A DNA stretch of 64,000 nucleotides from contig DAOUAQ010000116.1 of assembly GCA_034433375.1 (NCBI GenBank), forward strand, positions 16,442-80,441, given 5' to 3'. Source of the DNA: Anaerolineae bacterium (lineage in GTDB: Bacteria; Chloroflexota; Anaerolineae; B4-G1; SLSP01). Below are positions 18,219-49,819 of the stretch, one piece after another. The notes under the pieces were generated by a model that worked only from the letters and a program-made list of their open reading frames with translations, was not told the origin of the DNA and searched no databases. Position numbers and translations under genes: made by a program. Within the stretch, counting starts at the first letter, position 1, and each line of letters opens with the position of its first letter.

Positions 18219-18220
18219 GT

Positions 18221-21626: not shown

Positions 21627-21704
21627 CCAATACCACAGGCAGCTTCGCGCCGCATGTGAGCCGTCAGCGGGCGAGGTGGCTGTACTATGTAAGGTGGGGA
21701 AGGA

Positions 21705-24419: not shown

Positions 24420-24428
24420 AGGGCCAAT

Positions 24429-28743: not shown

Positions 28744-28779
28744 TGAGAAGTTTGTGGAGATACAGCAAGGAGACCTCCG

Positions 28780-29139: not shown

Positions 29140-29147
29140 GGGGGACT

Positions 29148-29504: not shown

Positions 29505-29544
29505 CGGGCGTGCTTTTTGCGGGTGCAGAAAAAAAGGACTCTCT

Positions 29545-31890: not shown

Positions 31891-33283
31891 GGTACGAGAA
31901 TCAACCACCAATGTGCTCACGGGTAGCGTGTTGCTTGAAGATCAGTCGCGGCGCACTCGTCTTTTGCGCACTGTGGCATGGGTTGTTTTGCTGGCGTGTT
32001 CTGTGGCGCTGCTTGGTTATCTCATTGCTTTGTTTTCCATTCCCCACCTGCCCATTTCCGCGCTTGTTGCTGATGTGCTGGCGATACTGTCTATGCTCGC
32101 CGTGCTTGCCTTGCTCGCGCGCGGACACTTCGAGCGGGCGCTGCCACTCGCCATCGTGAGTTTGACCGTGCTTCTGTTTGTCGCCATGTATTTTCTCAAC
32201 GGGACGCGGGGCCCGGCGCTTTTACTGTCGCCGCTGATTATGCTCATTGCCGGTATCGTTGGTGAGCGACGCTATGCTCAACCTACCACCATCGTTCACG
32301 TCCTCGTGTATGTGATCTTTGTAATCCTGGAGGCTCTCGGCGTACTCACGCCTTATCAGATGTCGCCACAGAGTTCACGATTAGTCTGGATTGGGGTTTT
32401 CATTCTGACCGCTGCCATAATGGTCATGATTAACCGGCAATTTATCGCTTATCTGGCATTGGCCCTCTCTGCATCGCTGAAGCGCGAGGAATCATTGGCG
32501 GAAATGAGCCGGCGCGCGCAAGCGTTGGCTGACGCCGAGCGTGTAGCGCAAACGCAAGCGCAAGAAAACGCGCGGCAGCTTCAAGAAGTGGCGCAAGAAT
32601 ACGCCGCTTTCCTGGAGCGCATCGCCACCGGTGACTATAGTGCGTCGCTGAACCTGGGTTCGTTAGCCGAACGGCCCAACTTGCCGCAAGCGTTAATTAG
32701 TTTGGGAGAATACATCAATACGACGGTTGCCAGTCTGGTATCGGCGTTGGATGAAGCGCGGAGTGCCCAGCAGACCTACATGCGCCAATCCTGGCAGAGT
32801 TTGATGGAAACCGGGCGCGCACCCGGCGGGTATCGTTATCACGTGGATGAGGAGACTGAAACGTCGCGCCTGGAGATCGCCGAAAACGCCTGGCTGCCGC
32901 CGATGACCCAGGCGGTGCAATCCAAGCAGATCGCAGTCGGCAAGGAGGAGTTGGCGCTCCCCATCGCTTCAGGCACGCGGGCGCAACTCATCGGTGCGTT
33001 AGGGGTGCGCCGTACCCGGCAGGAAGAATGGAGCGAGGACGAACTGGCGCTGGTGACAACGGTGACTGACCAACTGGCGCAAACTCTGGAGAACCTGCGC
33101 CTGCTCGACGAGACAACGCGCCGCGCGGCGCGTGAACAGATGGCCGGTGAAATTACCGGCCACATCCGCGAAGCGGTGGAGATCGAAGAAGTTTTGGAGC
33201 GCGCGTTGAGCGAACTTGGACGCGCTCTGGCTGTCGAGCGCGGCGCGGTATATCTGACGCTGCAAGAACAGGGAAAAGTCTGA
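31880..33283 (+). CDS. Membrane protein (type B): TM segments, HAMP-like/coiled-coil region, short GAF-like domain and the family tail; paralog of 10858..12243
   Basis: The ORF runs 31862..33283. The likely start is ATG 31880 ('MNNRVRES') with 'GAGGAGGGAGAGG' upstream. It overlaps the previous gene by 11 nt. Shared motif 'LGEYINTTVASLVSALDEARSAQQTY' is present. The tail is 'TRRAAREQMAGEITGHIREAVEIEEVLERALSELGRALAVERGAVYL'. Confidence 0.65.
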   Translation: MNNRVRESTTNVLTGSVLLEDQSRRTRLLRTVAWVVLLACSVALLGYLIALFSIPHLPISALVADVLAILSMLAVLALLARGHFERALPLAIVSLTVLLFVAMYFLNGTRGPALLLSPLIMLIAGIVGERRYAQPTTIVHVLVYVIFVILEALGVLTPYQMSPQSSRLVWIGVFILTAAIMVMINRQFIAYLALALSASLKREESLAEMSRRAQALADAERVAQTQAQENARQLQEVAQEYAAFLERIATGDYSASLNLGSLAERPNLPQALISLGEYINTTVASLVSALDEARSAQQTYMRQSWQSLMETGRAPGGYRYHVDEETETSRLEIAENAWLPPMTQAVQSKQIAVGKEELALPIASGTRAQLIGALGVRRTRQEEWSEDELALVTTVTDQLAQTLENLRLLDETTRRAAREQMAGEITGHIREAVEIEEVLERALSELGRALAVERGAVYLTLQEQGKV

Positions 33284-33338
33284 GCTAAGCGACAATTTCG
33301 ATCTTGGCGCTAATAATGAGTGTGATAAGGATGCAACT

Positions 33339-35123: not shown

Positions 35124-35128
35124 ACGAA

Positions 35129-36217
35129 TTGCGTATGATGAAACGTTGGCGTTTGTGGGGATTGATTGTCCTGTTGTCCTGCGTGGCGGCCTGCCAGCCG
35201 GCGCAGAATGTCGCCTGGCCTACGCCAGCGCCGATCGCGCCCGCGCGCGCTAAGCTGCGGGTGTTCTGGGTCAACAGCTACACCGAGGACGACTTCTGGT
35301 CGCAGCAGGTGCGCATCGGGGTCCTGGAGACGTTAGCGCGTCGGGGATATACGAGTGTTGACGGTACACTGGAAATGGAAACCTTCCACATGGGGATGCG
35401 GCAGGTCGCAGTGATTGAGGACGTAAGGCCGGCAGCGCTCCTGGCCGTTGAGCGGCTCGCAGATTTTCAGCCGGACATCGTCATTGTTTCTGGCGACGAA
35501 GCGACACGCACCATCATTCCGTTGTATTTTGATCCCACCTTGCCTTTCGTTTTCTGTGGTGTGAACAGTGACCTGCGCCAGTACGGGTTGGATCTACTGA
35601 ACGTCACCGGTGTTTTGGAAGCCCTGCATCCCGTACAAACTGTAGCGATGGCCTATGCTTTTGTCGAAGACGCGCAGCAGTATATGGTCCTCGGCGACGG
35701 CTCCGTGTCGGGCAAGGCCCGCGCCCTGGCGGCTTATGCCGCTCTGCAAAACAGTGCGTACGGCACGCCGGCGCCGCTGTTCCGCTTGGCGGGAACCTGG
35801 TCTCGTTGGCAAACGACGGTGCTGGAAGATGCGCGCGCGGCGGATTTCATCTTGCTGGCGAGCCATCAGGGTATCGTTGATGACAGTGGAAATCCCATTG
35901 ATGAGCAAGAGGTTATCGCGTGGATGCTGGAAAACTCTCCCGTGCCGGTTTTTGCTCTATCTAACGTTGCGATCATCAACGGCGCAGTGGGTGGCCTGGT
36001 CTCGTATGGGTATGAAGAAGGCGTTTCGGTCGGAGAAATCGTGGTGCGGCTGGCTGCCGGCGAGTCGCCGGCCGATATCGAAATTCGCGGCCCGGCGCGC
36101 AATCTGCTCGCGGTCAATCTGGCGGCCTCACGCCGCTGGAATTTGCGCATACCCGTTATGTTCCCGATCGCGGCACGCATCTACGGAACCTTGCCCGTTG
36201 CAGAAGGAGGTCATTAA
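35129..36217 (+). CDS. Stand-alone COG2984/ABC_sub_bind-type periplasmic binding lipoprotein (paralog of the N-terminal domain of 14204..16462)
   Basis: 362 aa. A lipoprotein-like signal is present ('MRMMKRWRLWGLIVLLSCVAAC'). The body is 'LRVFWVNSYTEDDFWSQQVRIGVLETL...PDIVIVSGDEATRTIIPLYFDPTLPFVFCGVN'. Its stop overlaps the ATG of the next gene (TAATG). Confidence 0.6.
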   Translation: MRMMKRWRLWGLIVLLSCVAACQPAQNVAWPTPAPIAPARAKLRVFWVNSYTEDDFWSQQVRIGVLETLARRGYTSVDGTLEMETFHMGMRQVAVIEDVRPAALLAVERLADFQPDIVIVSGDEATRTIIPLYFDPTLPFVFCGVNSDLRQYGLDLLNVTGVLEALHPVQTVAMAYAFVEDAQQYMVLGDGSVSGKARALAAYAALQNSAYGTPAPLFRLAGTWSRWQTTVLEDARAADFILLASHQGIVDDSGNPIDEQEVIAWMLENSPVPVFALSNVAIINGAVGGLVSYGYEEGVSVGEIVVRLAAGESPADIEIRGPARNLLAVNLAASRRWNLRIPVMFPIAARIYGTLPVAEGGH

Positions 36218-39200
36218 TGTCACAGAAGGGCATGAGCCTGCGCTGGCGCATGATTCTGATCATTGCCGGAATCCCCATGTTACTGCTGGTCCCGGTCTTC
36301 ATCTACTTGAGCAACCAGTACCGGAACGCCTATCGGCAGGCCTACTGGGGCAAAGCCGAGTTAATCACCATCCAACTGCAACAAACGCTCGAAACCGTCG
36401 CGCCCTACGTCGAGACGTTCCAGGATGCGCCAGGGCTGGCGACGCTTTTGCAAAAAGTGGTGGAGGGCAGCACAGAGTTCGACTTCGTCGCTTTGGTTGA
36501 CAGCGCGGGTAAAGCCATTGAACACTCTACCCCCGGACTCAAAAATGTGACGGTCGCGGAGTTGGCCGGCCTGGACAGCGCCAAACCGATTGAGCTGCGT
36601 GAATTATCGTACTTTGGTTCGGTCTATCTCATCTCGCGCGCGGTCCCTATGCCCGGCGACGCGAAACAACGCCTGTATATCGTCGTAGGAGAGCGGGCGG
36701 AGGTCGTTGATCCTCCGATGATGGCATTGCTGATCGTTGGTATACTCAGCGGGGTGGGGTTGATCGCGTTGCTGTACTTTTCCACGCAGGGGCTTGTGCT
36801 GCGACCGCTCACCCGTCTGGCAGAAGGGGCGCGAATTATCGGCGGCGGCGACCTGGCGCACACGATCCCGGTTGACAGGGAAGACGAAATCGGCGTGGTT
36901 GCGCAGTCGTTCAATGGGATGGCAGCTCGTCTGCGCGAAATGGTTTCGGGGCTGGAACAACGCATTACCGAGCGCACGGCGGCGCTGGAGCGCAAATCAC
37001 TGCAACTGGAAACCATCAGCCTGGTGAGTAAAGAAGCGGCCCAGGTGCGTAATGTCATTTTGCTCCTGGAAACAACCGTCCAGGCCGTATCGGATAAATT
37101 CGGTTTCTACCATGTGGGGATTTTCATCCTGGATGACGCCAGGGTGTGGGCGATACTGCGCGCGGCCTCTTCGGAGGGCGGTCAGCGGATGTTGGCGCGC
37201 GGGCACCGTCTGCGGGTTGGACAGACGGGCATCGTGGGTCTCGTGGCGAGCACCGGTAAACCGCGCATCGTTTTCAACGTCGGCGAGGATGCGGCCTGGT
37301 TCAATAACCCCGATCTGCCCGACACGCGCTCGGAAATGGCGTTGCCGCTGCTGGTGGAAAGTGGGGTAATCGGCATCCTGGACGTGCAAAGCGACGTGCC
37401 CAAAGCCTTCACCGACGAGGATATCAGCACCCTGCAATTGTTGGCCGACCAGTTAGCGGTGGCGCTCAACAACGCGCGCGCGCTTGAGCAGATGGAAAGC
37501 GCACTGGCTGAAGTTCACAATCTTCAGGTCGAGTACAGCCGTCAGGGGTGGGCGCGTATCGCGGCGCAGACGCGCCCTCTGGCCTATGAATATGACCGTG
37601 TGGACGTGAACCCTGTCCCGCCGCTTCCCGTGCCCCCGGATCTGCGCGAAGGGCGGGTGCAGCGCGCTCAATTGATGGATGGCGGCGTGCCGGTCGTCAT
37701 GGAAACCTTGCGGGCCGGCGACCGCGTGTTGGGCTACCTGGGTCTCGCCGATTCGCAGCGCACCTGGTCCCCAGAAGAACTGTCACTGGTCGAAAGCGTC
37801 AGCGAACAGGTTGCCCTCGCCCTGGAAAACGCCCGGCTCTTCGAGGAGTCGCAGCAGAGCCAACGCCAACAGACCCTTATCAGTAACGTCTTGCAGGTAT
37901 CCTCCAACCCCGACCTGAGCTTTGAGGACGTATTGGCTGAAATCGCCCGAATTCTAGCGCAGGCGTTGGGGATGGCCGTGGGGATTTACACTTTCCCGAC
38001 GCCCGACTTCCCGCGCGTACAGCCCCATGCTGTTCTCGATCCCTTCGGGGAGCGTCTACCATTCCCCACCGAACCAATCGCGTTGAGCGATGAACATCTC
38101 ACCTTCTTCCGGGGGCTGCGCCGTGCAGAATTAGGCCCGCTGCTGCCGCTGCTCGGTGGCGTCGAACTGGCGCCGGAGAACCGCGACCGGCTGGCGGCTT
38201 ACGAACTCAGGCGCGTATTCTACGTTCCCCTGGGCAGCAGCGGTTCGCAGCATGGGTTTATCGTCATGCTCCAATCTCGAGACAACGCGCTGCCCCTCGA
38301 CCCCGAAACGCGGGACCTCATTCAACGCCTGGCGAACCAGATTGAAGTGGTTTTGGATAACCTGACGTTGACGGAGGAGACCCAGCAGCGTTCCGAAGAA
38401 CTGCGTTCACTTTACAGCATCTCGTTGGTCTTGAGCGAACTGCTCGAACCGGCGGATGTGTTGGCTGCCATCGTGTCCCAAGGGGAAACACTGCTCAATG
38501 CAGATAGCAGCGGATTCTTTGAGTATGATGTTGAAACCGACGGGTTGATTTTAGCGTTGGGGCCTCCGGATGGTTCACTGGGACAGGTCGGACTGCGTCT
38601 ACGACGGGGTGAGGGATTGGCGGGCGAAGCCCTGGTCAAACAACAAACGCTCTTTGTCGAGGATTACGAGGTGTGGGACAGAAGTGTGCCCGCACTCCGT
38701 AGCTCGCGCTTTCATGCGATCATGGCTGTGCCTATGATCGGGCGGTTTGGTCCGCAGGGTGTGTTGGTGCTGCGCGCAGAGGAGATCGCTGCCTTTGGTG
38801 ATCGAGAAGTACGCCTGGCTAACCTCTTCGCCCAGCAAGCTGCTGCCGCGCTCGATAACGCGCGGTTGAACAAAGACGCGCAACGCCGCGCCGAGGAATT
38901 CTCGCTGCTCTCCCAGGCCGGCATTGACTTGCTGCCGATCCGGGATATGCAGCAGCTTCTCGCCCGCGCTGCCGATTGGACGCGGCGCATCTTCGACGTT
39001 CCGCGCGCCGTCATCTTCTTGCGCGACGCCGACGCCGGCATCTTCTTGTCGGGTCACAGTGTGGATGCGGCAGCGCACTTCTTGACGGAGCGCGATGACG
39101 ATCAGCCTAGCCCCGGTGGTTTGACAGCGTCCATTATGGAAACGCGCAAGGGTATCCTCATCCTGGATACCCGCAAAGATGACCGCGCAAGCAGCCAACG

Positions 39201-40698
39201 TCTGGCCGAGATCGGCTTGCTATCACGGATGGGCGTGCCATTGCGTGTCGGCGACGAAGTGTTGGGCGCGGTGCTCATCTCCGGGATTGAAGCCAGCCAG
39301 TTCAACGAACGTGAACTGAACCTGTTGGAATTCCTGGCGACGCAGGTCTCCTCGGCGATCCAGAATGCGCTGCAATTTGGTCGCACCGAAGCCGCGTTGG
39401 GTGTGGTGCGGCGGCAAGCGCGCTATCAGGCCAATGTCTCGCAGGCGGCGGCTTTGCTCACCGAGCGGGGCACCGAGGCGGTATCCGATGTGCTGCGTTT
39501 GCTCGGTGAGGCGTCCAACGCTCACGGCGTGCTCTATCTGGAGTACCACGCGGCCGAAGACGCTGCCGTTACGGATGACGGGACGGAGGACGTTGTGGGC
39601 GACTCGCATTGGCAGTCGCGCGCTCTGTGGATGGCGGCAGAGCTTCCCGCCGGCCAGTTCGATGCTGCGCTGTTGCAGCACATCGCGCTGGAACGGATGC
39701 AACCCTGGGCCGATCAGCTTATCGGCAGACCGTACCTGGCATTCCAACCCGATACCCTTCCCGCTGGGGAACGCGAATTGATGCGGGCGCTCGGTTTTAA
39801 CACGCTGTTACTGTTGACCGTGCGGGGCGAAGCCCTCTATCCCAACATCATCCTGCTAGGCCGCGCCGACGCCGAAAATGCCTGGTTGGAGGAGGAAATT
39901 GTGGCTATGCAGACTGCGGCTGCCACCCTTTCCAACACCATCGCGCGCGAGCGGGTCTTCCAGGAAGTGCAGGCGTCGCGTACCGAGACCGAGGCGCTGT
40001 ATCGCGGAAGCGCCGAGTTGAATCTCGCGCAGACCTACGATGGCATCCTGAACGTGCTGCGCACTCATACCATCCTGGGGCAGGGCGCGCATCACATGAC
40101 GCTACAACTCTTCGACCGCCCCTGGACGGACGAGAACGAGCCGCAATATGCCGAAGTTGTAGCGCACTGGACGACGACAAACACGAACGCGCTGCGCCAG
40201 CGTTACTGGGTCGCCGACTTCCCCACATCGCCGGAACTGATCCGCAACACCGGGGTGATTCTGCTCGATGACCTTGAACACAACCCGCTGCTGTCGCGTC
40301 GGAACCGCGCCTTGTTCTCCCGTGTCTACGGCGCGAAGACGGTCGTCTTGGTGCCGCTGATTGCCAGCGGTCAGCGGATCGGCTTCTTGCACGCGATGTA
40401 CCCCCAGGCCGTGACGTTCTCCGAGCAGGAGCGCCGCCGTTTGGAGAGCTTGACGCAGCAGGCCGCCATCGCCGCGCAGAACCGCCTGCAACTGCTGACC
40501 ATTGAAGCGCGCGTCAATCGGGAACGGATGATCCGTGAAATCACCGAGCGCATCCAGGCCGCGCCGGACGTGCAAGGGGTGCTGCAAGCCGCCGTGCGCG
40601 AATTGGGGCGGGCTTTCGGAACCTCGCGTAACAGAATACAATTCCGACCGCCCGGTGAATCTACAGATATCAAGACCAACGGAGAAAAAGAGCCTTAA
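36217..40698 (+). CDS. Membrane sensor: 2 TM with a periplasmic loop, HAMP, ~7 GAF domains and the family tail
   Basis: 1493 aa. The first TM is 'LIIAGIPMLLLVPVFIY'. A periplasmic region of ~150 aa follows, then a second TM. HAMP is 'LTRLAEGARIIGGGDLAHTIPVDREDEIGVVAQSFNGMAARLRE'. Multiple GAFs follow ('FGFYHVGIFILDDARVWAILRAASSEGGQRMLARGHRLRVGQTGIVGLVASTG...NPDLPDTRSEMALPLLVESGVIGILDVQS' and others). The tail is 'RVNRERMIREITERIQAAPDVQGVLQAAVRELGRAFGTSRNRIQF'. Confidence 0.7.
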   Translation: MSQKGMSLRWRMILIIAGIPMLLLVPVFIYLSNQYRNAYRQAYWGKAELITIQLQQTLETVAPYVETFQDAPGLATLLQKVVEGSTEFDFVALVDSAGKAIEHSTPGLKNVTVAELAGLDSAKPIELRELSYFGSVYLISRAVPMPGDAKQRLYIVVGERAEVVDPPMMALLIVGILSGVGLIALLYFSTQGLVLRPLTRLAEGARIIGGGDLAHTIPVDREDEIGVVAQSFNGMAARLREMVSGLEQRITERTAALERKSLQLETISLVSKEAAQVRNVILLLETTVQAVSDKFGFYHVGIFILDDARVWAILRAASSEGGQRMLARGHRLRVGQTGIVGLVASTGKPRIVFNVGEDAAWFNNPDLPDTRSEMALPLLVESGVIGILDVQSDVPKAFTDEDISTLQLLADQLAVALNNARALEQMESALAEVHNLQVEYSRQGWARIAAQTRPLAYEYDRVDVNPVPPLPVPPDLREGRVQRAQLMDGGVPVVMETLRAGDRVLGYLGLADSQRTWSPEELSLVESVSEQVALALENARLFEESQQSQRQQTLISNVLQVSSNPDLSFEDVLAEIARILAQALGMAVGIYTFPTPDFPRVQPHAVLDPFGERLPFPTEPIALSDEHLTFFRGLRRAELGPLLPLLGGVELAPENRDRLAAYELRRVFYVPLGSSGSQHGFIVMLQSRDNALPLDPETRDLIQRLANQIEVVLDNLTLTEETQQRSEELRSLYSISLVLSELLEPADVLAAIVSQGETLLNADSSGFFEYDVETDGLILALGPPDGSLGQVGLRLRRGEGLAGEALVKQQTLFVEDYEVWDRSVPALRSSRFHAIMAVPMIGRFGPQGVLVLRAEEIAAFGDREVRLANLFAQQAAAALDNARLNKDAQRRAEEFSLLSQAGIDLLPIRDMQQLLARAADWTRRIFDVPRAVIFLRDADAGIFLSGHSVDAAAHFLTERDDDQPSPGGLTASIMETRKGILILDTRKDDRASSQRLAEIGLLSRMGVPLRVGDEVLGAVLISGIEASQFNERELNLLEFLATQVSSAIQNALQFGRTEAALGVVRRQARYQANVSQAAALLTERGTEAVSDVLRLLGEASNAHGVLYLEYHAAEDAAVTDDGTEDVVGDSHWQSRALWMAAELPAGQFDAALLQHIALERMQPWADQLIGRPYLAFQPDTLPAGERELMRALGFNTLLLLTVRGEALYPNIILLGRADAENAWLEEEIVAMQTAAATLSNTIARERVFQEVQASRTETEALYRGSAELNLAQTYDGILNVLRTHTILGQGAHHMTLQLFDRPWTDENEPQYAEVVAHWTTTNTNALRQRYWVADFPTSPELIRNTGVILLDDLEHNPLLSRRNRALFSRVYGAKTVVLVPLIASGQRIGFLHAMYPQAVTFSEQERRRLESLTQQAAIAAQNRLQLLTIEARVNRERMIREITERIQAAPDVQGVLQAAVRELGRAFGTSRNRIQFRPPGESTDIKTNGEKEP

Positions 40699-40796
40699 GG
40701 TGGAGGACCGGAAACCGGCTGGACAGCGCGTCGCAGTGGTTCTCTGGCAGGATTTGAGTGTATTCGATCCGCTGGTTATGGGAAAGGTTATGTAAC

Positions 40797-43700
40797 ATGA
40801 CGATGATGGACACAGAAAAAAGTAAGGACCACGGGACTCAGGGGGTGGGGGCCTTGCGCCAACAGATGACCGCGCTATCACGCAAGGATGGGGGGATTTT
40901 CCTCCAATCTATGTTGGACGCCATCCCTAACCCGATTTTCTACAAGGATATGGCGGGCGTTTATCGCGCCTGCAATCGCGCCTTTGCCGAGGACGTTCTC
41001 GGCGTGCCGGGTGAACGTATCATCGGGCGGACTGTCTATGACCTGGCGGAATCTATGCCTCAAGCCCTGGTGGAAACCGATCATCCCAAAGACCTGTTGC
41101 TGCTGCGCGCGGCTGGCTCTGACGTTTACGAGACGGCGTTATGTTACGCGGACGGCATTTTCCACGACGTCGTCATCCACAAAACCACCCTGGCCGCGTC
41201 AGATGGTCGCATTGACGGTGTGGTGAGTGTGCTGCTCGATGTCACCGACTTCAACAAGTCGGAAGAAAAGAGCACGATGCTGCTTGAGTTGACCCAGGCC
41301 GCCATCGCCGAAACCGAGGTGCTCTATCACCTGAGCAGTTCCCTCATCGCTTTTGACGATCTGACGGGCCTTTTGCGGGCCGTGGTGGATGGCGTAGCGG
41401 ATATGCTGCTGGCGAACCAGGTGATATTGACGACGGTGGACCTTGAGCAGCGCAAAGTCATCCACTTCGTCAAGGGAGGCGTCGGCGTTGCCGGCGTTGC
41501 GCCGGAGATGTCCTTCGATGAACTGTGGAATGGTTTGAGCGGCGCGGCGTTGCGCAGCCTGAAGCCGATCCTCTCTACCAAGAGCACCCCCGACCCGCGC
41601 GAAAGCCCTGAAATCCAACGGCAGCTTGGCGAAGCGAGCATCGGCTCCGTGGTGGTCGTTCCCTTGCGGTACCAGGAGCGGACGTTGGGCACGTTAGCGG
41701 CTGTCAATCGTCTGGAAGACCCGGATTTCACGAAGAAGGATGTGAGCTTGATGGTGGCGATGGCGAACCAGGTCGCGGCTGCCGTCGAAAGCGGACATCT
41801 CTTCGCCAAATTGCAGCATACGGCGACAACTATGAGCACCGCTGCGGAAATCTCACAGGCGTCCTCGTCAATTTTGGATCTGGACGAATTGCTGCCGCAA
41901 GCCGTGGATCTCATCCGCCAACGCTTTAACCTGTACTACGCGGGCATTTTCCTGGTGGATGACAGCGGCGAGTGGGCCGTCCTTAGCGCGGGAACCGGCG
42001 CGGCGGGACGCGCCATGTTGGCTGAAGAGTACCGTGTGAAGGTAGGCGGCGAGTCGTTGATCGGCGCTTGTGTGGCGACCGCCTCGCCCTGCATGGCTCA
42101 GGATACGACATCAGCGCAGCGACGCATGGCGCTTGTGTATTTGCCGCACACACAGTCGGAGTTGGCGCTGCCGATGATTAGCCGTGACGCGACGATCGGC
42201 GCGATGACCGTGCAATCGGTGCTGGCAGGCGCTTTCACCGCCGAGGACGTCACGGCGCTGCAAATCATGGCGAACCAATTGGCGAACGCCATCCAGAACA
42301 TCCGGCTGCTGGAGAAAGTACGCACTTCCCTGGCGGAGACCGAGGCGCTCTATCAAACAGCGCGCGCGATCAGCGGCGCGCGCTCCTTCGAGGACATCCT
42401 TGAGGGGCTTTTTGACACAATCACGTTTATGCCTCTGAGCGAGGCGGTCTTGCACGTCATTGTCGCGCGCGATCCCCTCAAGGTGAACTCGTACACGACG
42501 ACCCGCGTCGGCGGTGAGCGACAGACGCACGTGACTTACACGACGTCCGTTGACGATGTCGCGCCACTGCTGGATGATCCGCAGCAGTTCGTCTTCTATG
42601 GCGACCCAAAAGATGAAGACGCCGCCATACCTGAACCGGCGCGCGCGCGCATGGCGCAGATGGGCTATCGTTCGACGCTGACCACCGGCTTGACGGCGCA
42701 CGGCGAACTGGTGGGGTTCCTCACGTTTAGCAGCGCCGCGTCGCAGCACATCATCGCGGCGCGCGCGGTGCAGGGCGCAGTGCGCGCTTTGGCCGATCAG
42801 ATCGGGGTTGTGCTGGATAACTTCCTGCTTGGCGAGCAGACACGCCTGCGCGCTGAACAACTCGAAACATTAAGCGTGATCGAATCCGCGCTTTCGGAGA
42901 CCAACACCGAGGCCGAGATACTGGACGTGTTTGTCCTGGCTGTGCGCGCTACTGCCACCCTCACGGCCTGGCTGGTGTACACCGACTCCGCCGCCGACGG
43001 CGTGGTGACGACGCAGATTGTGGCTTCCTGGCATAATGGGGCCATTCAGCCCGCTGACCCGCTGCTCAACCGCTCGCTTTCCCCGAACACTTTCCCTATG
43101 TCGCGTCTGTGGATGGGCGATCTGGATCAAATTTCTTACACCTATGATCTACACCAGGACAGCCCGATTGACGCCAGGGCGCGTGAATGGGCCATTGAGC
43201 ATGGCTTTGTGTCGGTGATGGTGCTGCCGATGTTGAGCGGCGGACACTTGCAAGGGGTCATCGTGCTCAACTGGGCTGAACCCTACGTTTTGTCTAGCAC
43301 CGAACAATTCCTCTTGCGGCGTCTGGTGCGCCCGACTGTGGCGTTGCTCTCGCGGCGACGCGCTTACCTTGCCGAGGAGGCTGCGCGCGCCGAAAATGAG
43401 CGCCGCGCGATGCAGTTCCAGACCGCGGCAGAAGTGGCCCACGCCGCCTCCTCCATCATTGACCTGGATGAATTGTTGCCTCATGCCGTGAATTTGCTCC
43501 GTGAGCGTTTCGACCTCTACTACGTTGGTGTTTTTCTGGTTGATGAAACCAGAGAATGGGTCGCGTTGCGCGCTGGTACGGGCGAGGCTGGCCGCATTAT
43601 GTTGGAACGCCAGCATGGTTTTACCGTCGGCGGCGGTTCGATGATCGGGCGGTGTGTGGCTGAGGCCACGCCGCAGATCCCCGAAAGCGTAGATACTGCG

Positions 43701-46700
43701 GTGCGTTACGTCAACCCGCTCTTGCCCAACACGACGGCGGAAATCGCTTTGCCGCTGGTCAGCCGCAACCAGATGATCGGGGCCATGTCAATCCAGTCCA
43801 GCAAAGTGCGCGCCTTCTCCGAGACCGACATCACCATCTTGCAGACAGTGGCTGACCAGTTAGCCAACGCGATTCAGAACGCCCGGCTGTTCGATCAACT
43901 GAATACCTCGCTGACCGAAAGCGAAATGCAGACAGAAGTGAGTCTGGCGATCAACGAAGCGCAATCGGTTGAAGAGATCGTGCGCGCGGCGGCGCAGGTA
44001 GGTGAGTTTATCGGCATGGCCGGCGTCTCCTTGCGCCATTTCACGCGCTGGGATGAGGCCGGGCGGCCTGTGAGCCAGGATGTTTACAGTTTGTTGACCC
44101 GTGAAGCCGGCGAAGAATTCCGCGTTATGGAGAACATCGTGATTAACCAGGAGCTTTTAGTCTGGATCCTCGCCGACACACGCCGGATGCATGTCAGCAG
44201 AGATTTGGTCACCGACATGGCCTTGCCTGAGGCTATTCGCGCCAGCTTGCTTGCGCAGGGCTATAACAGTATGATCTGCACGCCGCTCGGCACGCGGAAC
44301 CGTTTGTTGGGATTCCTGGTCCTGTTTGATACACGTCCGGTGGAGGAGTTCCCAGCCCGCTATATCCAGGTTTTTGTGCGGACGCTCATTGATCAGGTTT
44401 CGACGGGATTGGATCGCTACACGCTGCTCCGCGAAAGCGAACGGCGCGCCGCGCGAATGGAGACGGCTTCTGGAATCGCCCGCCATGCCGCGTCAATTCT
44501 GGATCAAGAGACTTTGCTCTCCGAAGTTGCCGGACTGATTCGTGAGCGTTTCAACTTATATCACGTGGGCATGTACATGGTGGACGATTCCGGACAGTGG
44601 GCGGTCTTGCACGCTGCTTCCGGCGACATTGGCCGCGCGCTGCTGGCGCAAGGCCAGCGCTTGCAGGTAGGCGCGGGTTCACTGGTGGGCGCGTGTGTGT
44701 CCGCCGCTGCCCCATACAGCGTCTTGAATCTGGACGAGGCATCACGCCGTCTCTATGCCGACGCCGTCACCGCTACCGGCTCGGCCATCGTGTTGCCGCT
44801 GATCAGCCAGAACGTCGTCATCGGTGCGGTGGCTATGCATTCGCAGGAAGCGGCCGCTTATTCTAAAGAGGACATCACCATCTTCCAGACGATGGCCGAC
44901 CAACTGGCGACGGCTATCGGCAACGCGCGCCTCTTTGCGCAGTCACAGACCAGCCTTGAAGAGTTGCAGCGGGTGCAGCAACGCTATGCCGTGGAAATGT
45001 GGGATGGCTACGTCGAGCAGCGGGACGTTTTCGGCTATACCTACGATCTGAACGAAGTCGCTCCATTGCCTGTTGAGCAATCCAGTGCCCCGGCTGATCT
45101 TTGGGGCGGCAAGCTCTTCATGCGCAGCGGTGAAGAGGATGGCGATGGCGCGCTGTTGGTCGCGCCTTTCGATGTCAGGAGCGAGCCGGTGGGCTTCCTG
45201 AGTTTTGAGGAACCCGGCGCGTCGCGGACGTGGACCGAAGACAATGTCGCCGTCATCGAGGCCGTCCGCGAGCAGCTTGCCCTGGCCCTGGAGAACCGTT
45301 TGTTGATTGACCAATCCCAAAATGCACTGCGTGAAGCCCGGCAGCGTGAGCGCGAAGTTCGCTTCCTCCAGGGGGTCGCCGCCTTCCTCAATGCGACGGA
45401 GAGCATCGTGGCCTCTCAAAACGAATTGCGGGAGCACCTGCAGGCATTCATCCCGGTGGACTCGCTTTCTATCACCGGGTATGACGCCAATCGTATGTTG
45501 CACTTTTTGGGGGAGCAGACCGGCAACGTGCTCAACCTGGAGAATTGGGCGGGGGTCGAATTGGGAAAAGGAACGGGATACACACTGGCGGCTGAGACGG
45601 GCGAACCTTTGCTGCACGATGACATCCGCCAGACCCCGCGTTTCTGGGAAGATGAGCACTTGATTGTGGCGGGAATGGTCGCGCGCGCTGTCATGCCCTT
45701 GCGGTTAGGCGCGCGCATCCTGGGGACGTTGAACCTGGAGAGCCGCCAACCTGGCACATTCTCACGGCCTGAGCTGATGCCCATCCTCTCGCAGGTGACG
45801 GCGCAAGTCGCCTCGGCGATGGAGCGCGCCAACCTGCTGCAACGCGCCCAAGAGAGCGCCGGCGAGTCGCGCACCCTCTACGAAGCCACCAGCGCGCTGG
45901 CCGAAGCTACCAGCTACGAGACCGTGCTGCGCGCCATCGTCGGACACACCATTCTGTCGGAGTATGCCTGGGCCGAGATTGCGATGTTCATTGTTGATCC
46001 CGAAACCGGCGCAGAACAGAGTTTGTTGGAAGTCGTCAGTTCGTGGAGCAGTCAGTCCTCTCTTGCGCCCCTGGAAGTCGGGCGGCGGATGTCGGTCGCG
46101 GAGTTCCCGGCGCTGCAACGCCTCGCGCCGGGGCAACAACTGTACATCTGCGAGGACATCAATATGGCGCTGGACATGGATCCGTCGGTCCGCAACTTCT
46201 ATCTTGAGCAGGGCGTGCAGGCATTTGTGATGGCGCGCCTTTCTGCAGTCGGCGTCACCAGCGGCGGCGGAATCGGCGTGCTCCAGATTCGATTCTCGGA
46301 GCCATACCACCCATCGGAACAGGACGTGCGTCTCTACAACAACATCGCCGATCAGGCCGCTGTCGTGCTCTCTAACCAGAAGCTGCTGCGGCTGTCTGAG
46401 GCGCGCACCGAGCAGTTGACCGCCGCCGTGGACTTCGCGAACCTCGCCACGGCCCTCTCGGAGCGCGAAGATTTGCTCAAGCGATCGGTAGATTTCTTTA
46501 AGACGCGCTTTGGTTTCTACTATGTGGGCATTTCGATGCTGGACGAGCAAGGGGAGTGGGCCGTCTTGCAGGCCGGCACCGGCGATGTCGCGGAGACGCT
46601 GCTGCGTATGGGGACGCGTGTGCGTGTTAATGCCAGCTCGATGGTCGGTTGGAGCATCGTCAACGACCGACCACGCATCGCCCAGGATGTAACGCGCGAC

Positions 46701-49454
46701 CCGCTATACTTTGGAAACCCCTTGCTGCCGGGCGTGCAATCGTCCATTGCGTTGCCCCTCAAGAGCCGTGGGCAGGTCAACGGCGTCCTCACCATCGAGA
46801 GCGACCGGCGCTTCGCGTTTACCGGCGAAATCGTCTCGACACTCGAACTTATGGCGACGCAACTGGCGAATATGATCGAAAGCGCCGACCTGTACGACCG
46901 TTCGCAAAGCTCGCTGGCCGAGACGCGGATGCTCTATCGCATCGCGCAGCAGATTACCGACGCGCTCACGGTCGAGAACGTCTTCAAGGCTGCGGTCGAA
47001 GGTATCTCGCAGCGTCCTGAACCGGATTGGATCGTCGCCGCGCAACTCGAACCGCGTCAGTCGCCGACGCACCTGCGCATCGTGTGGTCGTGGAGCCGCG
47101 ACGGCGCGCCCATCCCCTTTGAGGCGTATCCACTCGCTCAGTTCCCTCGGCTGGCGGCCGTGTTGCGAGATGACGAGAGTTATGTCACCCCCGATGTGAC
47201 CCAAGACCCTCAGGTGGACGAATTCTTCCGCACCGTCTTCGGACAACTGGGGCTGCGGGCGATGGCGGCTTTCCAGTTGCGCATCTATGGCGTGCAATAT
47301 GGCGCGGTGATGATTCACAGCCGCAAAGCGCGGGAGTTTTCCAACACGGAATTGCGCTTCTACGAAAACGTATCTCGCCAGGCTTTCGTGGCCTTGCAGA
47401 ACATCAACCTCGTCGAAGAGACGCGCGAGCAGGCGGAACGGCGTGACATCCTCAATGAGGTGCTGCGGACTGCCTCAAGTTCGCTGGACAGGCTCTCGTT
47501 GATGCGCGACGTCGGCAGAGTGATCGCCACCCGTCTTGATCGCCCTCTTATGATGTGGAACTGGGATAATCAACTGCTCACCTCTGTATCGGTGCATGAA
47601 GCAGGGGGAAAGCTGGTCGGAGGCGGCGATATGACGCCACCCTTGACCCGCGTTGACGCTCCTTTGCTCTACCAGGTGATTGATAAGATGGCCCCGGTTT
47701 CCCTTGACTTTGCAGACGACCGTGGCCTGATGCTGAAGCGCACGTTGACTTACTTCAGCCAACCCCTTGTGGAAGGCTACGCAGTGCCGTTGCGGGTGCG
47801 CGGGACGATTTTTGGCATTATGGTTCTGGGACGCCAGGAAGAACATGCTTCCTTCAACGAAGAGATCAAGGACTTCATGCGCACCGCCGGCGTCAACGTC
47901 AGTGTGGCATTGCAGACGGCGGTTCTTTACCAGGAGGCGCAAGACACAGCCATCAAACTCCAGGAAGTTGATAAGCTCAAAAACCAGTTCATGGCGAACA
48001 TGTCCCATGAACTGCGTACCCCGCTCAACTCCATCATCGGGTTCTCACGGGTGATTTTGAAGGGCATTGATGGCCCGTTGACCGAAATGCAAAAGACGGA
48101 TCTGACGGCGATCTACGACAGCGGACGTAACCTGCTGGAATTGATCAACGACATTCTGGACATTTCCAAAATTGACGCCGGTAAGATGGAAATGGTTTTC
48201 GAGCCGACCGATTTGCAGGAAATCGTGCGCGGCGTCGTCACCACGATAGCCGGGCAATTGAAGGGCAGCCCTGTAGAGCTTTTGACGGATCTGCCCGATC
48301 AGTTGCCGGTGGTTCTGGCCGATGGTCGCCGCATTCGCCAGGTGTTGACCAACATGGTGGGCAACGCGGTGAAGTTCACCGAACACGGCTACATCAAGAT
48401 CGCGGCTTCGTATGACAGCTATCAGGTTGTGATGAGCGTCGAAGACACCGGCATCGGCATCCCCTACGATCGTCGTCACGCCGTTTTTGAAAAATTCGAG
48501 CAGGTGGACTCTTCTTCGACGCGGCGTTATGGCGGCACCGGCCTGGGTTTGCCTCTCAGCCGTGAGTTTGTCAGACTCCACGGCGGGGATATGGATTTTG
48601 AGAGCGTCGTTGGCGAAGGCTCGCGGTTCTACTTTTGGATTCCCATCGGCGGGCCGTCCTCCAAACGCGAAGAGGAAGACAAGACTGTACAATCACCTGA
48701 CACCCATACCATTCTCACCGTTGATGATGATGAAGGCGTCATCACCCTCTTCCAGCGTTACCTGGAAAAGCAGGGCTATAAGGTCGCCGGTATGACGACC
48801 GGCGAGGGCGTTGTCGAAACGGCCAAGCGCCTGAAGCCCTATGCCATCACGCTGGATGTGATTATGCCCGGCAAGGACGGCTGGCAGATCATCCAGGAAT
48901 TGCGCGCCGATCCAGAAACCCGCGACATTCCCATAATCGTGTGTTCCATCATGAGTGATGCGGACAAGGGACTGAGCATGGGCGTTGCCGATTACCTGGT
49001 AAAACCGGTCACAGAGCAGGATTTGCTCGACGCGCTCGTGCATCTGGAGCATCCAGGTGCCGCAGGTCATGTGTTGATCGTGGATGATAACGCGGATGAC
49101 CGTAAACTGCTGCGGCGCATCCTTGAAGATGCCGGCTACAAGGTCGAGGAAGTGACGGGCGGCGCGGAAGCCATCAACGCCATCCATACAAATCCACCCA
49201 ACCTGATCATCTTGGACTTGATGATGCCGGACGTAGATGGCTTTGCGGTCTTGGAGAATCTCAAGATGACGCCGTTGACCCGCGATATTCCCGTGGTCGT
49301 GGTGACGGCTAAAGAATTGGGTAAATCTGAACGTGAGCGCCTGCAACAGCGCGTCGAGGCGTTGCTGCAGAAGGGCCTGTTTGACCAGAACCAATTGCTC
49401 AACGATGTGCTCTCTGCCCTCGAACGTTTGAAGGAGACCAAACACGCGCGCTAA
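40797..49454 (+). CDS. Giant hybrid sensor histidine kinase: PAS, ~11 GAF domains, HisKA, HATPase_c and two receiver (REC) domains
   Basis: The ORF runs 40758..49454, 2898 aa. The likely start is ATG 40797 ('MTMMDTEKSK'). The N-terminal PAS is 'LQSMLDAIPNPIFYKDMAGVYRACNRAFAE'. Many GAF units are present ('LIRQRFNLYYAGIFLVDDSGEWAVLSAGTG', 'LLRERFDLYYVGVFLVDETREWVALRAGTG' and others). The H-box is 'MSHELRTPLNSIIGFS'. The ATPase region is 'VGNAVKFTEHGYIKI...EDTGIGIP...GGTGLGLPLSREFVRLHGG'. REC1 is 'ILTVDDDEGVITLF...AITLDVIMPGKDGW'. REC2 is 'VLIVDDNADDRKLL...LIILDLMMPDVDGF'. Confidence 0.8.
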   Translation: MTMMDTEKSKDHGTQGVGALRQQMTALSRKDGGIFLQSMLDAIPNPIFYKDMAGVYRACNRAFAEDVLGVPGERIIGRTVYDLAESMPQALVETDHPKDLLLLRAAGSDVYETALCYADGIFHDVVIHKTTLAASDGRIDGVVSVLLDVTDFNKSEEKSTMLLELTQAAIAETEVLYHLSSSLIAFDDLTGLLRAVVDGVADMLLANQVILTTVDLEQRKVIHFVKGGVGVAGVAPEMSFDELWNGLSGAALRSLKPILSTKSTPDPRESPEIQRQLGEASIGSVVVVPLRYQERTLGTLAAVNRLEDPDFTKKDVSLMVAMANQVAAAVESGHLFAKLQHTATTMSTAAEISQASSSILDLDELLPQAVDLIRQRFNLYYAGIFLVDDSGEWAVLSAGTGAAGRAMLAEEYRVKVGGESLIGACVATASPCMAQDTTSAQRRMALVYLPHTQSELALPMISRDATIGAMTVQSVLAGAFTAEDVTALQIMANQLANAIQNIRLLEKVRTSLAETEALYQTARAISGARSFEDILEGLFDTITFMPLSEAVLHVIVARDPLKVNSYTTTRVGGERQTHVTYTTSVDDVAPLLDDPQQFVFYGDPKDEDAAIPEPARARMAQMGYRSTLTTGLTAHGELVGFLTFSSAASQHIIAARAVQGAVRALADQIGVVLDNFLLGEQTRLRAEQLETLSVIESALSETNTEAEILDVFVLAVRATATLTAWLVYTDSAADGVVTTQIVASWHNGAIQPADPLLNRSLSPNTFPMSRLWMGDLDQISYTYDLHQDSPIDARAREWAIEHGFVSVMVLPMLSGGHLQGVIVLNWAEPYVLSSTEQFLLRRLVRPTVALLSRRRAYLAEEAARAENERRAMQFQTAAEVAHAASSIIDLDELLPHAVNLLRERFDLYYVGVFLVDETREWVALRAGTGEAGRIMLERQHGFTVGGGSMIGRCVAEATPQIPESVDTAVRYVNPLLPNTTAEIALPLVSRNQMIGAMSIQSSKVRAFSETDITILQTVADQLANAIQNARLFDQLNTSLTESEMQTEVSLAINEAQSVEEIVRAAAQVGEFIGMAGVSLRHFTRWDEAGRPVSQDVYSLLTREAGEEFRVMENIVINQELLVWILADTRRMHVSRDLVTDMALPEAIRASLLAQGYNSMICTPLGTRNRLLGFLVLFDTRPVEEFPARYIQVFVRTLIDQVSTGLDRYTLLRESERRAARMETASGIARHAASILDQETLLSEVAGLIRERFNLYHVGMYMVDDSGQWAVLHAASGDIGRALLAQGQRLQVGAGSLVGACVSAAAPYSVLNLDEASRRLYADAVTATGSAIVLPLISQNVVIGAVAMHSQEAAAYSKEDITIFQTMADQLATAIGNARLFAQSQTSLEELQRVQQRYAVEMWDGYVEQRDVFGYTYDLNEVAPLPVEQSSAPADLWGGKLFMRSGEEDGDGALLVAPFDVRSEPVGFLSFEEPGASRTWTEDNVAVIEAVREQLALALENRLLIDQSQNALREARQREREVRFLQGVAAFLNATESIVASQNELREHLQAFIPVDSLSITGYDANRMLHFLGEQTGNVLNLENWAGVELGKGTGYTLAAETGEPLLHDDIRQTPRFWEDEHLIVAGMVARAVMPLRLGARILGTLNLESRQPGTFSRPELMPILSQVTAQVASAMERANLLQRAQESAGESRTLYEATSALAEATSYETVLRAIVGHTILSEYAWAEIAMFIVDPETGAEQSLLEVVSSWSSQSSLAPLEVGRRMSVAEFPALQRLAPGQQLYICEDINMALDMDPSVRNFYLEQGVQAFVMARLSAVGVTSGGGIGVLQIRFSEPYHPSEQDVRLYNNIADQAAVVLSNQKLLRLSEARTEQLTAAVDFANLATALSEREDLLKRSVDFFKTRFGFYYVGISMLDEQGEWAVLQAGTGDVAETLLRMGTRVRVNASSMVGWSIVNDRPRIAQDVTRDPLYFGNPLLPGVQSSIALPLKSRGQVNGVLTIESDRRFAFTGEIVSTLELMATQLANMIESADLYDRSQSSLAETRMLYRIAQQITDALTVENVFKAAVEGISQRPEPDWIVAAQLEPRQSPTHLRIVWSWSRDGAPIPFEAYPLAQFPRLAAVLRDDESYVTPDVTQDPQVDEFFRTVFGQLGLRAMAAFQLRIYGVQYGAVMIHSRKAREFSNTELRFYENVSRQAFVALQNINLVEETREQAERRDILNEVLRTASSSLDRLSLMRDVGRVIATRLDRPLMMWNWDNQLLTSVSVHEAGGKLVGGGDMTPPLTRVDAPLLYQVIDKMAPVSLDFADDRGLMLKRTLTYFSQPLVEGYAVPLRVRGTIFGIMVLGRQEEHASFNEEIKDFMRTAGVNVSVALQTAVLYQEAQDTAIKLQEVDKLKNQFMANMSHELRTPLNSIIGFSRVILKGIDGPLTEMQKTDLTAIYDSGRNLLELINDILDISKIDAGKMEMVFEPTDLQEIVRGVVTTIAGQLKGSPVELLTDLPDQLPVVLADGRRIRQVLTNMVGNAVKFTEHGYIKIAASYDSYQVVMSVEDTGIGIPYDRRHAVFEKFEQVDSSSTRRYGGTGLGLPLSREFVRLHGGDMDFESVVGEGSRFYFWIPIGGPSSKREEEDKTVQSPDTHTILTVDDDEGVITLFQRYLEKQGYKVAGMTTGEGVVETAKRLKPYAITLDVIMPGKDGWQIIQELRADPETRDIPIIVCSIMSDADKGLSMGVADYLVKPVTEQDLLDALVHLEHPGAAGHVLIVDDNADDRKLLRRILEDAGYKVEEVTGGAEAINAIHTNPPNLIILDLMMPDVDGFAVLENLKMTPLTRDIPVVVVTAKELGKSERERLQQRVEALLQKGLFDQNQLLNDVLSALERLKETKHAR

Positions 49455-49468: not shown

Positions 49469-49496
49469 TTGACAGTTTATCTCTCAGGTGTACAAT
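49469..49496 (+). promoter_or_regulatory. Candidate sigma70-like promoter for the ferredoxin gene (TTGACA-N16-TACAAT)
   Basis: TTGACA lies at 49469-49474 and TACAAT at 49491-49496. RBS AGGAGG at 49544-49549 precedes ATG 49559. Confidence 0.45.
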
Positions 49497-49558
49497 AAAA
49501 TCCGTTAATCAAGAGTATTTCCTATTCTATACCACTTTTTTGAACAGGAGGTTGTGCT

Positions 49559-49819
49559 ATGGCTTACGTAATTACCGACATTTGTGAGCGCGCTGGCGTT
49601 TGTGTTGATGTATGTCCCACGGACTCGATTCATGCTGTAGAAGGCGACGTCAAGTGGCCTACATACTACATCAACCCTGATTCTTGCATTAACTGTGGCG
49701 CGTGCGCTGCGGAATGCCCCAACGAGGCCATCTTCGACGAGGCTGACGCTGAGGCCGCCGATTTCGTGCAGAAGAACGCCGATTTCTTCACCAAAGGCCC
49801 CGGCAAAGATCTGATATAA
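49559..49819 (+). CDS. Small 4Fe-4S ferredoxin
   Basis: 86 aa. Cys motifs are 'CERAGVCVDVCP' and 'CINCGACAAECP'. A strong RBS is present. Confidence 0.8.
   Translation: MAYVITDICERAGVCVDVCPTDSIHAVEGDVKWPTYYINPDSCINCGACAAECPNEAIFDEADAEAADFVQKNADFFTKGPGKDLI

Follow-up and report, generated by a model that had tools for sequence, protein, structure and literature searches.

The Anaerolineae are reported to be abundant in anaerobic digesters and sediments, and they are hard to culture. The stretch of DNA considered here, referred to below as the window, comprises 64,000 nucleotides of contig DAOUAQ010000116.1 (positions 16,442 to 80,441) in the assembly GCA_034433375.1 of an Anaerolineae bacterium. 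It contains the gene of a very large hybrid histidine kinase, which follows a tightly packed, same-strand run of 18 genes at positions 1..40698; 17 of these encode sensors and the eighteenth, g17, is a binding-protein-like gene. The sensors share one GAF-based C-terminus, and Pfam detects no kinase, cyclase, DNA-binding, or other output domain in any of the 17. The usual reading of a two-component system is one sensor kinase plus one regulator. In an array of the type described here, more than 20 separate sensors seem to be served by no more than two kinases, which suggests a many-to-one, GAF-based integration of signals.

The kinase gene is a single plus-strand open reading frame (ORF) without an internal stop, 2898 codons long when the ORF scan is counted from the GTG at 40758. 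The NCBI protein P0001 is 100% identical to the product, is 2885 aa long, and starts at the ATG at 40797. The initial annotation had combined the length of 2898 aa with a start at 40797; each figure is real, but the two do not belong together, and they disagree by 13 codons. Both start candidates are preceded by purine-rich stretches, and the region of the ATG is preferred by the orthologue alignment. Residue numbers below are counted from the GTG unless ATG numbering is stated. The initial annotation had also named a frameshift or a sequencing error in the ORF as a threat to its reading, and neither a frameshift nor an internal stop was seen. An orthologue of 2888 aa with 92% identity is present on four contigs from independent sources (ncbi, jgi, ena, and gem), and other full-length orthologues of 2150–2935 aa reach down to approximately 30% identity; those with a named source all come from metagenome-assembled genomes of Anaerolineae or Anaerolineales. 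The ORF is therefore real and intact, and it is not an artefact of assembly.

Domain boundary annotation with Pfam bore out the order of domains that had been read from the sequence (PAS, a GAF array, HisKA, HATPase_c, and two receivers, REC1 and REC2), and the strings quoted at that time, MSHELRTPLNSIIGFS, ILTVDDDEGV...LDVIMPGKDGW, and VLIVDDNADDRK...LDLMMPDVDGF, are all found in the kinase. The earlier count of approximately 11 GAF domains had to be corrected: the kinase has 13 GAF-like domains, 12 of full length and one short, when a jackhmmer profile trained on the GAFs of the locus, Pfam searches of fragments, and an AlphaFold model of residues 515–1700 are taken together. Whole-protein Pfam matches GAF, GAF_2, and GAF_3 (GAF_2 with E = 7e-108 in 8 stretches). 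Four further GAFs come from the locus-trained profile and the fragment searches with scores at or near the cut-off, and GAF 13 is placed by sequence only, at 24.4 bits against a cut-off of 27. In the AlphaFold model (pLDDT 77), seven discrete alpha/beta GAF-like units are separated by helices of 40–50 residues. The layout of the protein is PAS-G1-[A-B-B]-[A-B]-[A-SHORT-G-B]-[A-B-B]-kinase, where A-type GAFs are of the kind found in the upstream sensors, B-type GAFs are kinase-specific, and SHORT is a short form of the domain; the last helix of GAF 13 continues into the DHp domain of the kinase. No convincing transmembrane (TM) segment is predicted in this protein; most of the sensors have several.

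The best Foldseek matches of the model are tandem-GAF dimers, namely PDE5/PDE6/PDE2, CyaB2, and phytochromes (E about 1e-11). These proteins are alike in carrying GAF folds on long helices, and the solved examples are parallel dimers, PDE6 being a natural heterodimer formed via its GAF region; however, they hold two or three GAF-type domains and have a cyclase, phosphodiesterase, or phytochrome output, whereas the kinase holds 13 in one chain. Its likeness to the GAF-PHY arrangement is generic, and no PHY or phytochrome match is present among its Pfam results. By sequence there is only one match to a solved structure, YebR, and it is weak (E = 0.006), so that no ligand can be predicted.

The transmitter has all of its expected parts. 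HisKA is recognized by Pfam with E = 1.3e-19 (70.5 bits against a cut-off of 26.9) and contains the sequence MSHELRTPL with His2417. HATPase_c (E = 1.4e-26) has N2536, the G1 box DTGIGI at 2563, the F box FEKFEQ at 2577, and the G2 box GGTGLGL at 2592. The two C-terminal Response_reg domains (E = 1.5e-42), which make the protein a hybrid kinase, retain the canonical receiver residues: the acidic pair D2656/D2657, the phospho-acceptor D2700, S2730, and K2749 in REC1, and the acidic pair D2776/D2777, the phospho-acceptor D2820, T2850, and K2872 in REC2. In an alignment of 26 sequences, H2404, N2523, D2550, D2687, K2736, D2807, T2837, and K2859 (ATG numbering) are invariant. The DHp is 77–99% identical across 25 orthologues, even where whole-protein identity is approximately 30%, and it is followed in the order of conservation by the receivers and the A-type GAFs. 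The best-conserved sensor domain is GAF 5 (42–94% identity in 24 orthologues; in the 25th most of it is missing). The block of GAFs 2-3-4 is complete in P0002 and P0005, is present as GAFs 3-4 without GAF 2 in P0003 and P0004, and is absent from the other 21 orthologues. Because it is limited to the closest orthologues, the number of domains in this kinase seems to change by the insertion of [A-B-B] blocks.

No Hpt domain (PF01627), the mark of an unorthodox kinase, was found in the kinase or elsewhere in the window, and the 64 kb contain no separate response regulator of any sort. The earlier statement that a cognate DNA-binding response regulator is missing from the window thus holds. The idea that the REC domains are entry points of a phosphorelay is not supported; placed after the core, canonical in their residues, and invariant, they fit a role as phospho-acceptors for the kinase's own histidine. 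Against NCBIfam models of the BarA/ArcB/TorS/LuxQ/HrmK type, the transmitter (approximately residues 2378–2750) gives E values of 1e-70 to 1e-97, with scores far under every equivalog cut-off (326 bits vs 890 for BarA). It shares with these hybrid kinases the H, N, G1, F, and G2 boxes and a canonical receiver after the core. It differs from them in lacking a TM or periplasmic sensor and an Hpt domain, in having a second receiver instead, and in its input of PAS and 13 GAFs spanning approximately 2350 residues. From these comparisons the protein appears to be a new and extreme member of the hybrid histidine kinases, predicted to be soluble and cytoplasmic.

The sensors of the upstream run have diverse input domains, which include Peripla_BP (the LacI-type sugar-binding fold), dCache with HAMP, ABC_sub_bind, MASE11, other multi-TM regions, and PAS. 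The first gene, g01, is cut by the edge of the window; in contig L087, which is 100% identical, it encodes a 783-aa dCache-HAMP-GAF protein. The only sizeable gap in the array is occupied by two small SpoIIAA-like ORFs, with scores near or at the Pfam cut-off (E = 1.2e-4 and 7.5e-6; 23–27 bits against 25). No promoter-like or terminator-like site was found between g18 and the kinase gene, and Rfam and tRNA scans of the window gave no matches.

Table 1. Features of the sensor array, the hybrid kinase, and their surroundings. Positions are those of the window unless a locus is named; sensor starts are the first in-frame start codons, so apparent overlaps between genes are upper bounds. Residue numbers (aa) are those of the kinase.
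Feature	Coordinates	Strand	54-aa tail	Description or basis
g01	1-837	+	616-777	Cut by window edge; ORF listing 55..837
g02	828-3704	+	3495-3656	Peripla_BP
g03	3701-6655	+	6416-6577	dCache-HAMP
g04	6567-10886	+	10653-10814	Peripla_BP-GAF-PAS-PAS-GAF
g05	10810-12243	+	12028-12189	Multi-TM
g06	12244-14025	+	13759-13920	Multi-TM
g07	14150-16462	+	16271-16432	ABC_sub_bind
g08	16308-18218	+	18006-18167	MASE11
g09	18221-19939	+	19712-19873	Multi-TM
g10	19785-21626	+	21414-21575	Multi-TM
g11	21705-24419	+	24228-24389	dCache-HAMP
g12	24429-26234	+	25944-26105	Multi-TM
g13	26182-28743	+	28486-28647	PAS x3 and GAF x2
SpoIIAA-like ORFs, tandem paralogues	28780-29139, ~29148-29504	+		STAS fold, 119 and ~118 aa; Pfam PF11964
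g14	29545-31890	+	31675-31836	GAFs
g15	31862-33283	+	33095-33256	Multi-TM
g16	33339-35123	+	34899-35060	Multi-TM
g17	35129-36217	+		ABC_sub_bind-like binding protein; no GAF, no tail; stop overlaps g18 start
g18	36217-40698	+	40483-40644	TM-HAMP, 5-6 GAFs
Hybrid histidine kinase ORF	40758..49454	+		2898 aa from GTG; 2885 aa from ATG 40797
PAS (aa 53-165)	40914..41252	+		Pfam PAS_4, E = 8.6e-11
GAF 1 (aa 193-350)	41334..41807	+		Divergent, full length; jackhmmer 97.7 bits, profile positions 6-153
GAF 2-3-4 block (aa 366-870)	41853-43367	+		[A-B-B] block
GAF 2 (aa 366-520)	41853..42317	+		A-type, A1, motif IGACVA; Pfam, jackhmmer, GAF comparison
GAF 3 (aa ~535-693) and GAF 4 (aa ~710-870)	42360..43367	+		Kinase-specific B-type; Pfam on fragment, AlphaFold folds
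GAF 5 (aa 894-1047)	43437..43898	+		A-type, A1; Pfam, jackhmmer
GAF 6 (aa 1065-1225)	43950..44432	+		B-type, paralogue of GAF 3; Pfam on fragment, AlphaFold
GAF 7 (aa 1241-1394)	44478..44939	+		A-type; jackhmmer, AlphaFold
GAF 8 (aa 1398-1519)	44949..45314	+		Short form, the SHORT module; jackhmmer, AlphaFold
GAF 9 (aa 1556-1696) and GAF 10 (aa 1712-1878)	45423..46391	+		GAF 9 nearest to g14 residues 422-565; jackhmmer, AlphaFold
GAF 11 (aa 1895-2048)	46440..46901	+		A-type, between A1 and A2; jackhmmer, GAF comparison
GAF 12 (aa 2063-2221) and GAF 13 (aa ~2235-2393)	46944..47936	+		B-type; jackhmmer, Pfam on fragment
HisKA (DHp; aa 2408-2475)	47979..48182	+		Pfam; phospho-acceptor His2417, codon at 48006
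HATPase_c (aa 2522-2630)	48321..48647	+		Pfam
REC1	48708..49052	+		Response_reg
REC2	49071..49403	+		Response_reg
Promoter-like site	49469-49496			TTGACA, 16 nt, TACAAT; 11/12 matches
Ferredoxin gene	49559-49819	+		86 aa, 2x[4Fe-4S]; own AGGAGG ribosome-binding site; hairpin after stop
Two overlapping small ORFs	59673-60396	-		149 and 94 aa
dnaN	61742-63163			Near right end of window
PALP-receiver genes of related loci	L097:16958-18667; L121:15085-16764; L125:17878-19524; L129:20419-22137			Also in L134 and L146

All of the GAF sensors in the window (17/17) end in a tail of 54 aa with the pattern LYxDTQRRAAREQLxxEITxxIRxSLDxExVLxTAVxEIRxALxLxRxxVRL, and the kinase gives no match to it. In most of them an A-type GAF is followed by SHORT and then by the tail, after which 7–42 mostly acidic residues lead to the stop codon. 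Profile comparison shows that the tail corresponds to the junction helix, the first helix, and the first strand of a GAF. Since only the start of a GAF is matched, the sensors stop after the first GAF strand. The AlphaFold model of g09 has five or six TM helices, a long coiled helix, an A-type GAF, SHORT, and then the tail. The N-terminus, the GAFs, and the tail are all retained in more than 4600 full-length homologues of g09. Across 33 aligned sequences of this family (32–80% identity), conservation reaches 90% or more at the tail residues R506, R507, A508, E511, R522, A534, and E537; the tail is thus under selection. A Peripla_BP protein of approximately 680 aa in two related loci (L088:12208-14229 and L085:2273-4330) has a tail and no detectable A-type GAF, so that the tail can occur without the GAF-A module.

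Several explanations of the tail were tried, and most of them were rejected. It is not a unique new domain, because a search of the whole library shows it to be the ordinary junction of a common GAF subtype. The best matches of its profile, multi-GAF kinases from other lineages of apparently low GC, contain the element in 8–11 internal copies; in P0361, P0364, and P0370, which are kinases of 2500–2900 aa from apparently AT-rich lineages with 9–12 near-identical GAF repeats, each repeat begins with the tail motif (AEREALLRKIIETIRSTLDIDETL...). What seems distinctive in the present sensors is the truncation and the exclusively C-terminal use of this element. Neither is the tail a degenerate H-box or pseudo-DHp, as the similarity of EITxxIRxSLD to NMSHELRTPLN might suggest: hhalign aligns the first 14 columns only, which cover just the end of the preceding helix, with a probability of 7.8%, whereas it places the tail in register with the starts of GAF 5 and GAF 9 over 43–48 columns. 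The tail does not complete an N-truncated GAF of the next protein, because the N-terminal ~190 residues of the minimal sensors are five or six TM helices. Nor is it supported, as a general rule, that the tail completes an incomplete GAF of the kinase, because the six full-size GAFs modelled in residues 515–1700 have their own first helix and strand; SHORT is the only unit that is poorly modelled at its start, and most terminal kinases (20 of 34) do without it. A circular permutation, in which the body of SHORT and the tail that follows would together make one GAF, may still apply and is suggested by the profile positions they cover (38–154 for SHORT and 4–40 for the tail) and by P0413 and P0410, which have repeated tail-then-body units. 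Against it, the tail is not folded back in the AlphaFold model, and SHORT of the kinase precedes a complete GAF.

The arrangement seen in the window is conserved in related loci. In four of them, where the kinase is 92, 54, 51, and 30% identical (L001–L004), four or five same-strand tail sensors lie directly upstream of the kinase gene, and in the two most distant (L003 and L004) the last sensor gene abuts or overlaps it. With one sensor protein as the query, 79 metagenome loci were retrieved. They contain 279 ORFs with a C-terminal tail, all on the strand of the query, and a kinase core was found in none of them (0/279); internal matches to the tail number only three. Kinase ORFs lie on the same strand in 41 of 46 cases, 27 directly after a tail ORF and six directly before one, and in every locus of at least 20 kb (16/16) tails occur together with a same-strand kinase. 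Every same-strand terminal hybrid kinase examined carries one A-type GAF or more. In other words, transmitter-less sensors of the A-type GAF-SHORT-tail form stand next to same-strand kinases that lack the tail. We propose the term shared-kinase sensor array for such loci, as a putative class set up from this analysis and not as a family described before. The unusual part is the context, that is, a conserved array of transmitter-less sensors with a common GAF-based C-terminus. We found no description of it in the literature, and likewise nothing on multi-GAF kinases of Anaerolineae or on fusions of a PALP enzyme with a receiver, which are discussed below.

It could be argued that the long ORF or the whole array is a product of mis-assembled GAF repeats, or that the sensors are truncated pseudogenes of one ancestral giant kinase, since the content is highly repetitive and the tails resemble truncation points within a GAF. 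The independent full-length assemblies of orthologues mentioned above (the others being 51–68% identical), the lack of frameshifts and internal stops, and a Logan contig that matches 6 kb of the array at 100% identity all contradict this view. The A-type GAFs within the kinase are only 31–53% identical to one another and are thus too diverged for assembly collapse, and decay is difficult to reconcile with the thousands of g09 homologues that keep the N-terminus, the GAFs, and the tail. This explanation is largely refuted, and we assign it a very small probability.

The kinase and the sensors are also related through their GAFs. GAFs 2, 5, and 7 of the kinase belong to a sub-subtype, A1, marked by LYYxGxFLVD...IGxCVA...QLANAI, and they are 49–56% identical to the A-type GAFs of g03, g04 (two copies), g07, and g11, which is as close as they are among themselves. 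Besides the kinase, three sensors with soluble ligand-binding domains as inputs (g04, g07, and g11) have the conserved Cys of IGxCVA; g03 shows the A1 framework but lacks this residue. The multi-TM sensors carry a sister sub-subtype, A2 (FYHxGxF...GGQRMLARGHRLRVG). SHORT and GAF 9 likewise have counterparts among the upstream sensors. The initial annotation had placed all GAFs of the kinase in the same subtype as those of the upstream proteins, and this is correct for the four A-type GAFs, the short GAF, and GAF 9, but not for the rest, which have at best weak matches. Domain fusions provide a further link. In homologues of g02, the same combination of Peripla_BP with the A-type GAF module may end in the tail, may be joined to HisKA-HATPase_c(-REC), or may be joined to STAS. 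The last GAF helix of P0310 leads straight into the DHp. SHORT and the tail therefore sit where a kinase or STAS output sits elsewhere, and this is the main argument for an output by protein interaction. As a separate observation, the STAS-fused homologues of g02, together with the SpoIIAA-like ORFs within the array, hint at a link to partner switching.

Hetero-association of the kinase with the upstream proteins had been suggested in the initial annotation, and the suggestion has gained from synteny that extends to 30% identity, from the shared A-type GAF, from the mutual exclusion of tail and kinase core, and from the domain fusions; we infer from these observations a physical association, a direction of signal flow, and candidate phosphotransfer partners. 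In this scheme, the sensors would associate with the kinases of the array through the shared GAF-A/SHORT/tail module. GAF domains form dimers, and several sensors share the sub-subtype of the four A-type GAFs in the kinase. Many inputs might in this way feed the autophosphorylation of a single kinase, much as chemoreceptors act together on CheA or RsbR paralogues on the stressosome. From His2417, the phosphoryl group would move to the kinase's own receivers (Asp2700, Asp2820), and from these, or directly from His2417, to partners encoded elsewhere. We regard the signalling of many sensors to one kinase by physical association as the most likely mechanism and give it about an even chance.

A quite different view is that the kinase is an autonomous cytoplasmic integrator of many ligands, with a separate small molecule for each GAF or PAS domain and an activity set by their sum, and that the sensors are merely co-located paralogues that signal in some other way. 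Among its GAFs, six are B-types specific to the kinase, for which the sensors offer at best weak matches, and nine of the 13 are not of the sensor-type A, which fits autonomous ligand sensing. Multi-GAF kinases of 2000–4400 aa are widespread, and the full-size GAFs modelled in residues 515–1700 are complete, so that nothing visibly awaits complementation. However, this view leaves unexplained why 279 sensor ORFs lack an output and have a conserved C-terminal module, why, in all loci of 20 kb or more, same-strand sensors come directly before such kinases, and why kinase and sensors have the A-type GAF in common. We consider it possible but on balance rather unlikely.

Other points also weigh against a kinase shared by physical association, in addition to the B-type GAFs. 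The kinase has four A-type GAFs for more than 20 sensors. In the AlphaFold model of g09 the tail is a plain extension of the long helix followed by disorder, with no docking element. The tail profile is not unique, with 11,251 matches in 1.84 billion cluster representatives, and as an ordinary junction plus the start of a common GAF subtype, the tail may be a relic of evolution. Of 337 tail ORFs, 280 contain SHORT, against only 14 of 34 terminal hybrid kinases, and this module therefore cannot be a universal docking site. Neither an Hpt domain nor an output regulator is linked to the kinase in the lineage of the window. Finally, the real partner of the sensors may be a second kinase, encoded at the 5' end of related arrays.

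The array continues past the left edge of the window. A Logan contig with 100% identity to positions 1–6000 runs 2.6 kb further upstream, and related collinear contigs (82% nucleotide identity) have at least four more sensor genes before g02. In three related contigs, where the protein is 66–80% identical to the query sensor, the array opens with two overlapping single-domain receivers of 131 and 149 aa, with canonical residues, next to an 805-aa HAMP-GAF-HisKA-HATPase_c kinase. By collinearity, this REC-REC-kinase module would lie approximately 15.5 kb upstream of position 1; it is so far seen in the relatives only. The kinase had been described as the sole canonical output of the locus. This is true within the window and does not hold beyond it: the apparent sole output and the absence of a response regulator arise because the window boundary cuts the array. 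The array as a whole probably holds more than 20 sensors, spans 50 kb or more, and is bracketed by kinases and receivers.

The sensors might act on this 5' module, and the giant kinase might be secondary, as a phosphatase, as a sink for phosphate via its receivers, or as a cross-regulator of the first kinase. A REC-REC-kinase trio with a kinase of ~800 aa opens eight related arrays (L088, at 2731–5974, L089, L090, L092, L097, L118, L127, and L140), the two kinase cores are 46% identical, and their H-box regions are closely similar. Hybrid kinases with two receivers and without an Hpt domain can act as sinks. On the other hand, three arrays (L094, L121, and L150) have the 5' receivers without an adjoining kinase and yet retain the terminal kinase, which has receiver domains in L121 and L150 and none in L094. 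Moreover, kinase ORFs are far commoner after a tail ORF than before one, and for the array of the window the module is known through the three related contigs only. A leading role of the 5' module thus seems to us distinctly improbable.

If the giant kinase is indeed shared by the sensors, the two 5' single-domain receivers would be candidates for its phosphotransfer partners. Another candidate is found in more distant arrays, where the terminal hybrid kinase is followed by a gene for a threonine-synthase-like PLP enzyme (PALP) of approximately 560 aa with a C-terminal receiver. This protein may be described as a putative enzyme-type response regulator; it is absent from the window, whose lineage has a ferredoxin gene in its place. 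A bolder extension of the same idea, which we offer as speculation and think unlikely to hold in full, is a "plug-in" receptor array of the Anaerolineae, a mode of two-component wiring that has not been described before. Dozens of transmitter-less sensors of different inputs, encoded in an array of 50–75 kb, would use their common GAF-A/SHORT/tail module to dock on a shared kinase or a pair of them; the docking or strand-swap element would be the tail, in which the GAF breaks off after helix-helix-strand; and in some lineages the output would be the direct control of a PLP enzyme (threonine-synthase-like plus receiver) and not transcription.

Among known systems, the chemoreceptors (MCP-CheW-CheA) and the stressosome (RsbR paralogues-RsbS-RsbT) offer an analogy and no more: receptors of varied inputs, with one conserved C-terminal module and no transmitter of their own, act there on a shared soluble kinase. 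The locus belongs to neither system. An MCP signalling domain and CheW were looked for in the window and in those related loci that were covered by Pfam scans, and neither was found. The sensors here end in GAF modules and not in STAS, as those of the stressosome do, and yet the array includes the two SpoIIAA-like ORFs and some of the homologues are fused to STAS. The RetS-GacS-LadS system is similar in the idea that a kinase is modulated by heteromerisation and not by phosphotransfer. However, the contact there is made between the DHp domains of kinases, whereas the present sensors have no DHp.

The family of these sensors is large and belongs to the Anaerolineae, and its members are annotated only as "GAF domain-containing protein". 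If they do share a kinase, sensors that seem to be dead ends would gain a new output module, the existence of output-less proteins would be explained, and a concrete system would be available for the study of how GAF signals pass between proteins. The plug-in array, if real, would be a GAF-based counterpart of the chemoreceptor arrays and the stressosome. If the kinase is not shared, it would still be an extreme case of serial GAF integration and worth structural study.

On the 3' side, the best promoter-like site of the region lies just past the stop codon of the kinase gene and is followed by the ferredoxin gene; together, the interval 49469..49819 probably marks the 3' boundary of the array. 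The ferredoxin gene follows the kinase gene in L001–L003 too, but the whole downstream region is syntenic in these loci, and its position therefore implies no specific link. Further downstream are PolX, ROK, VanW, GH94, and dnaN. With dnaN near the right end and a positive GC skew in 30 of the 32 bins of 2 kb, a location of the array close to the replication origin, on the leading strand, seems possible. In the same downstream region, the two overlapping small ORFs on the minus strand look, by eye, like a toxin-antitoxin pair.

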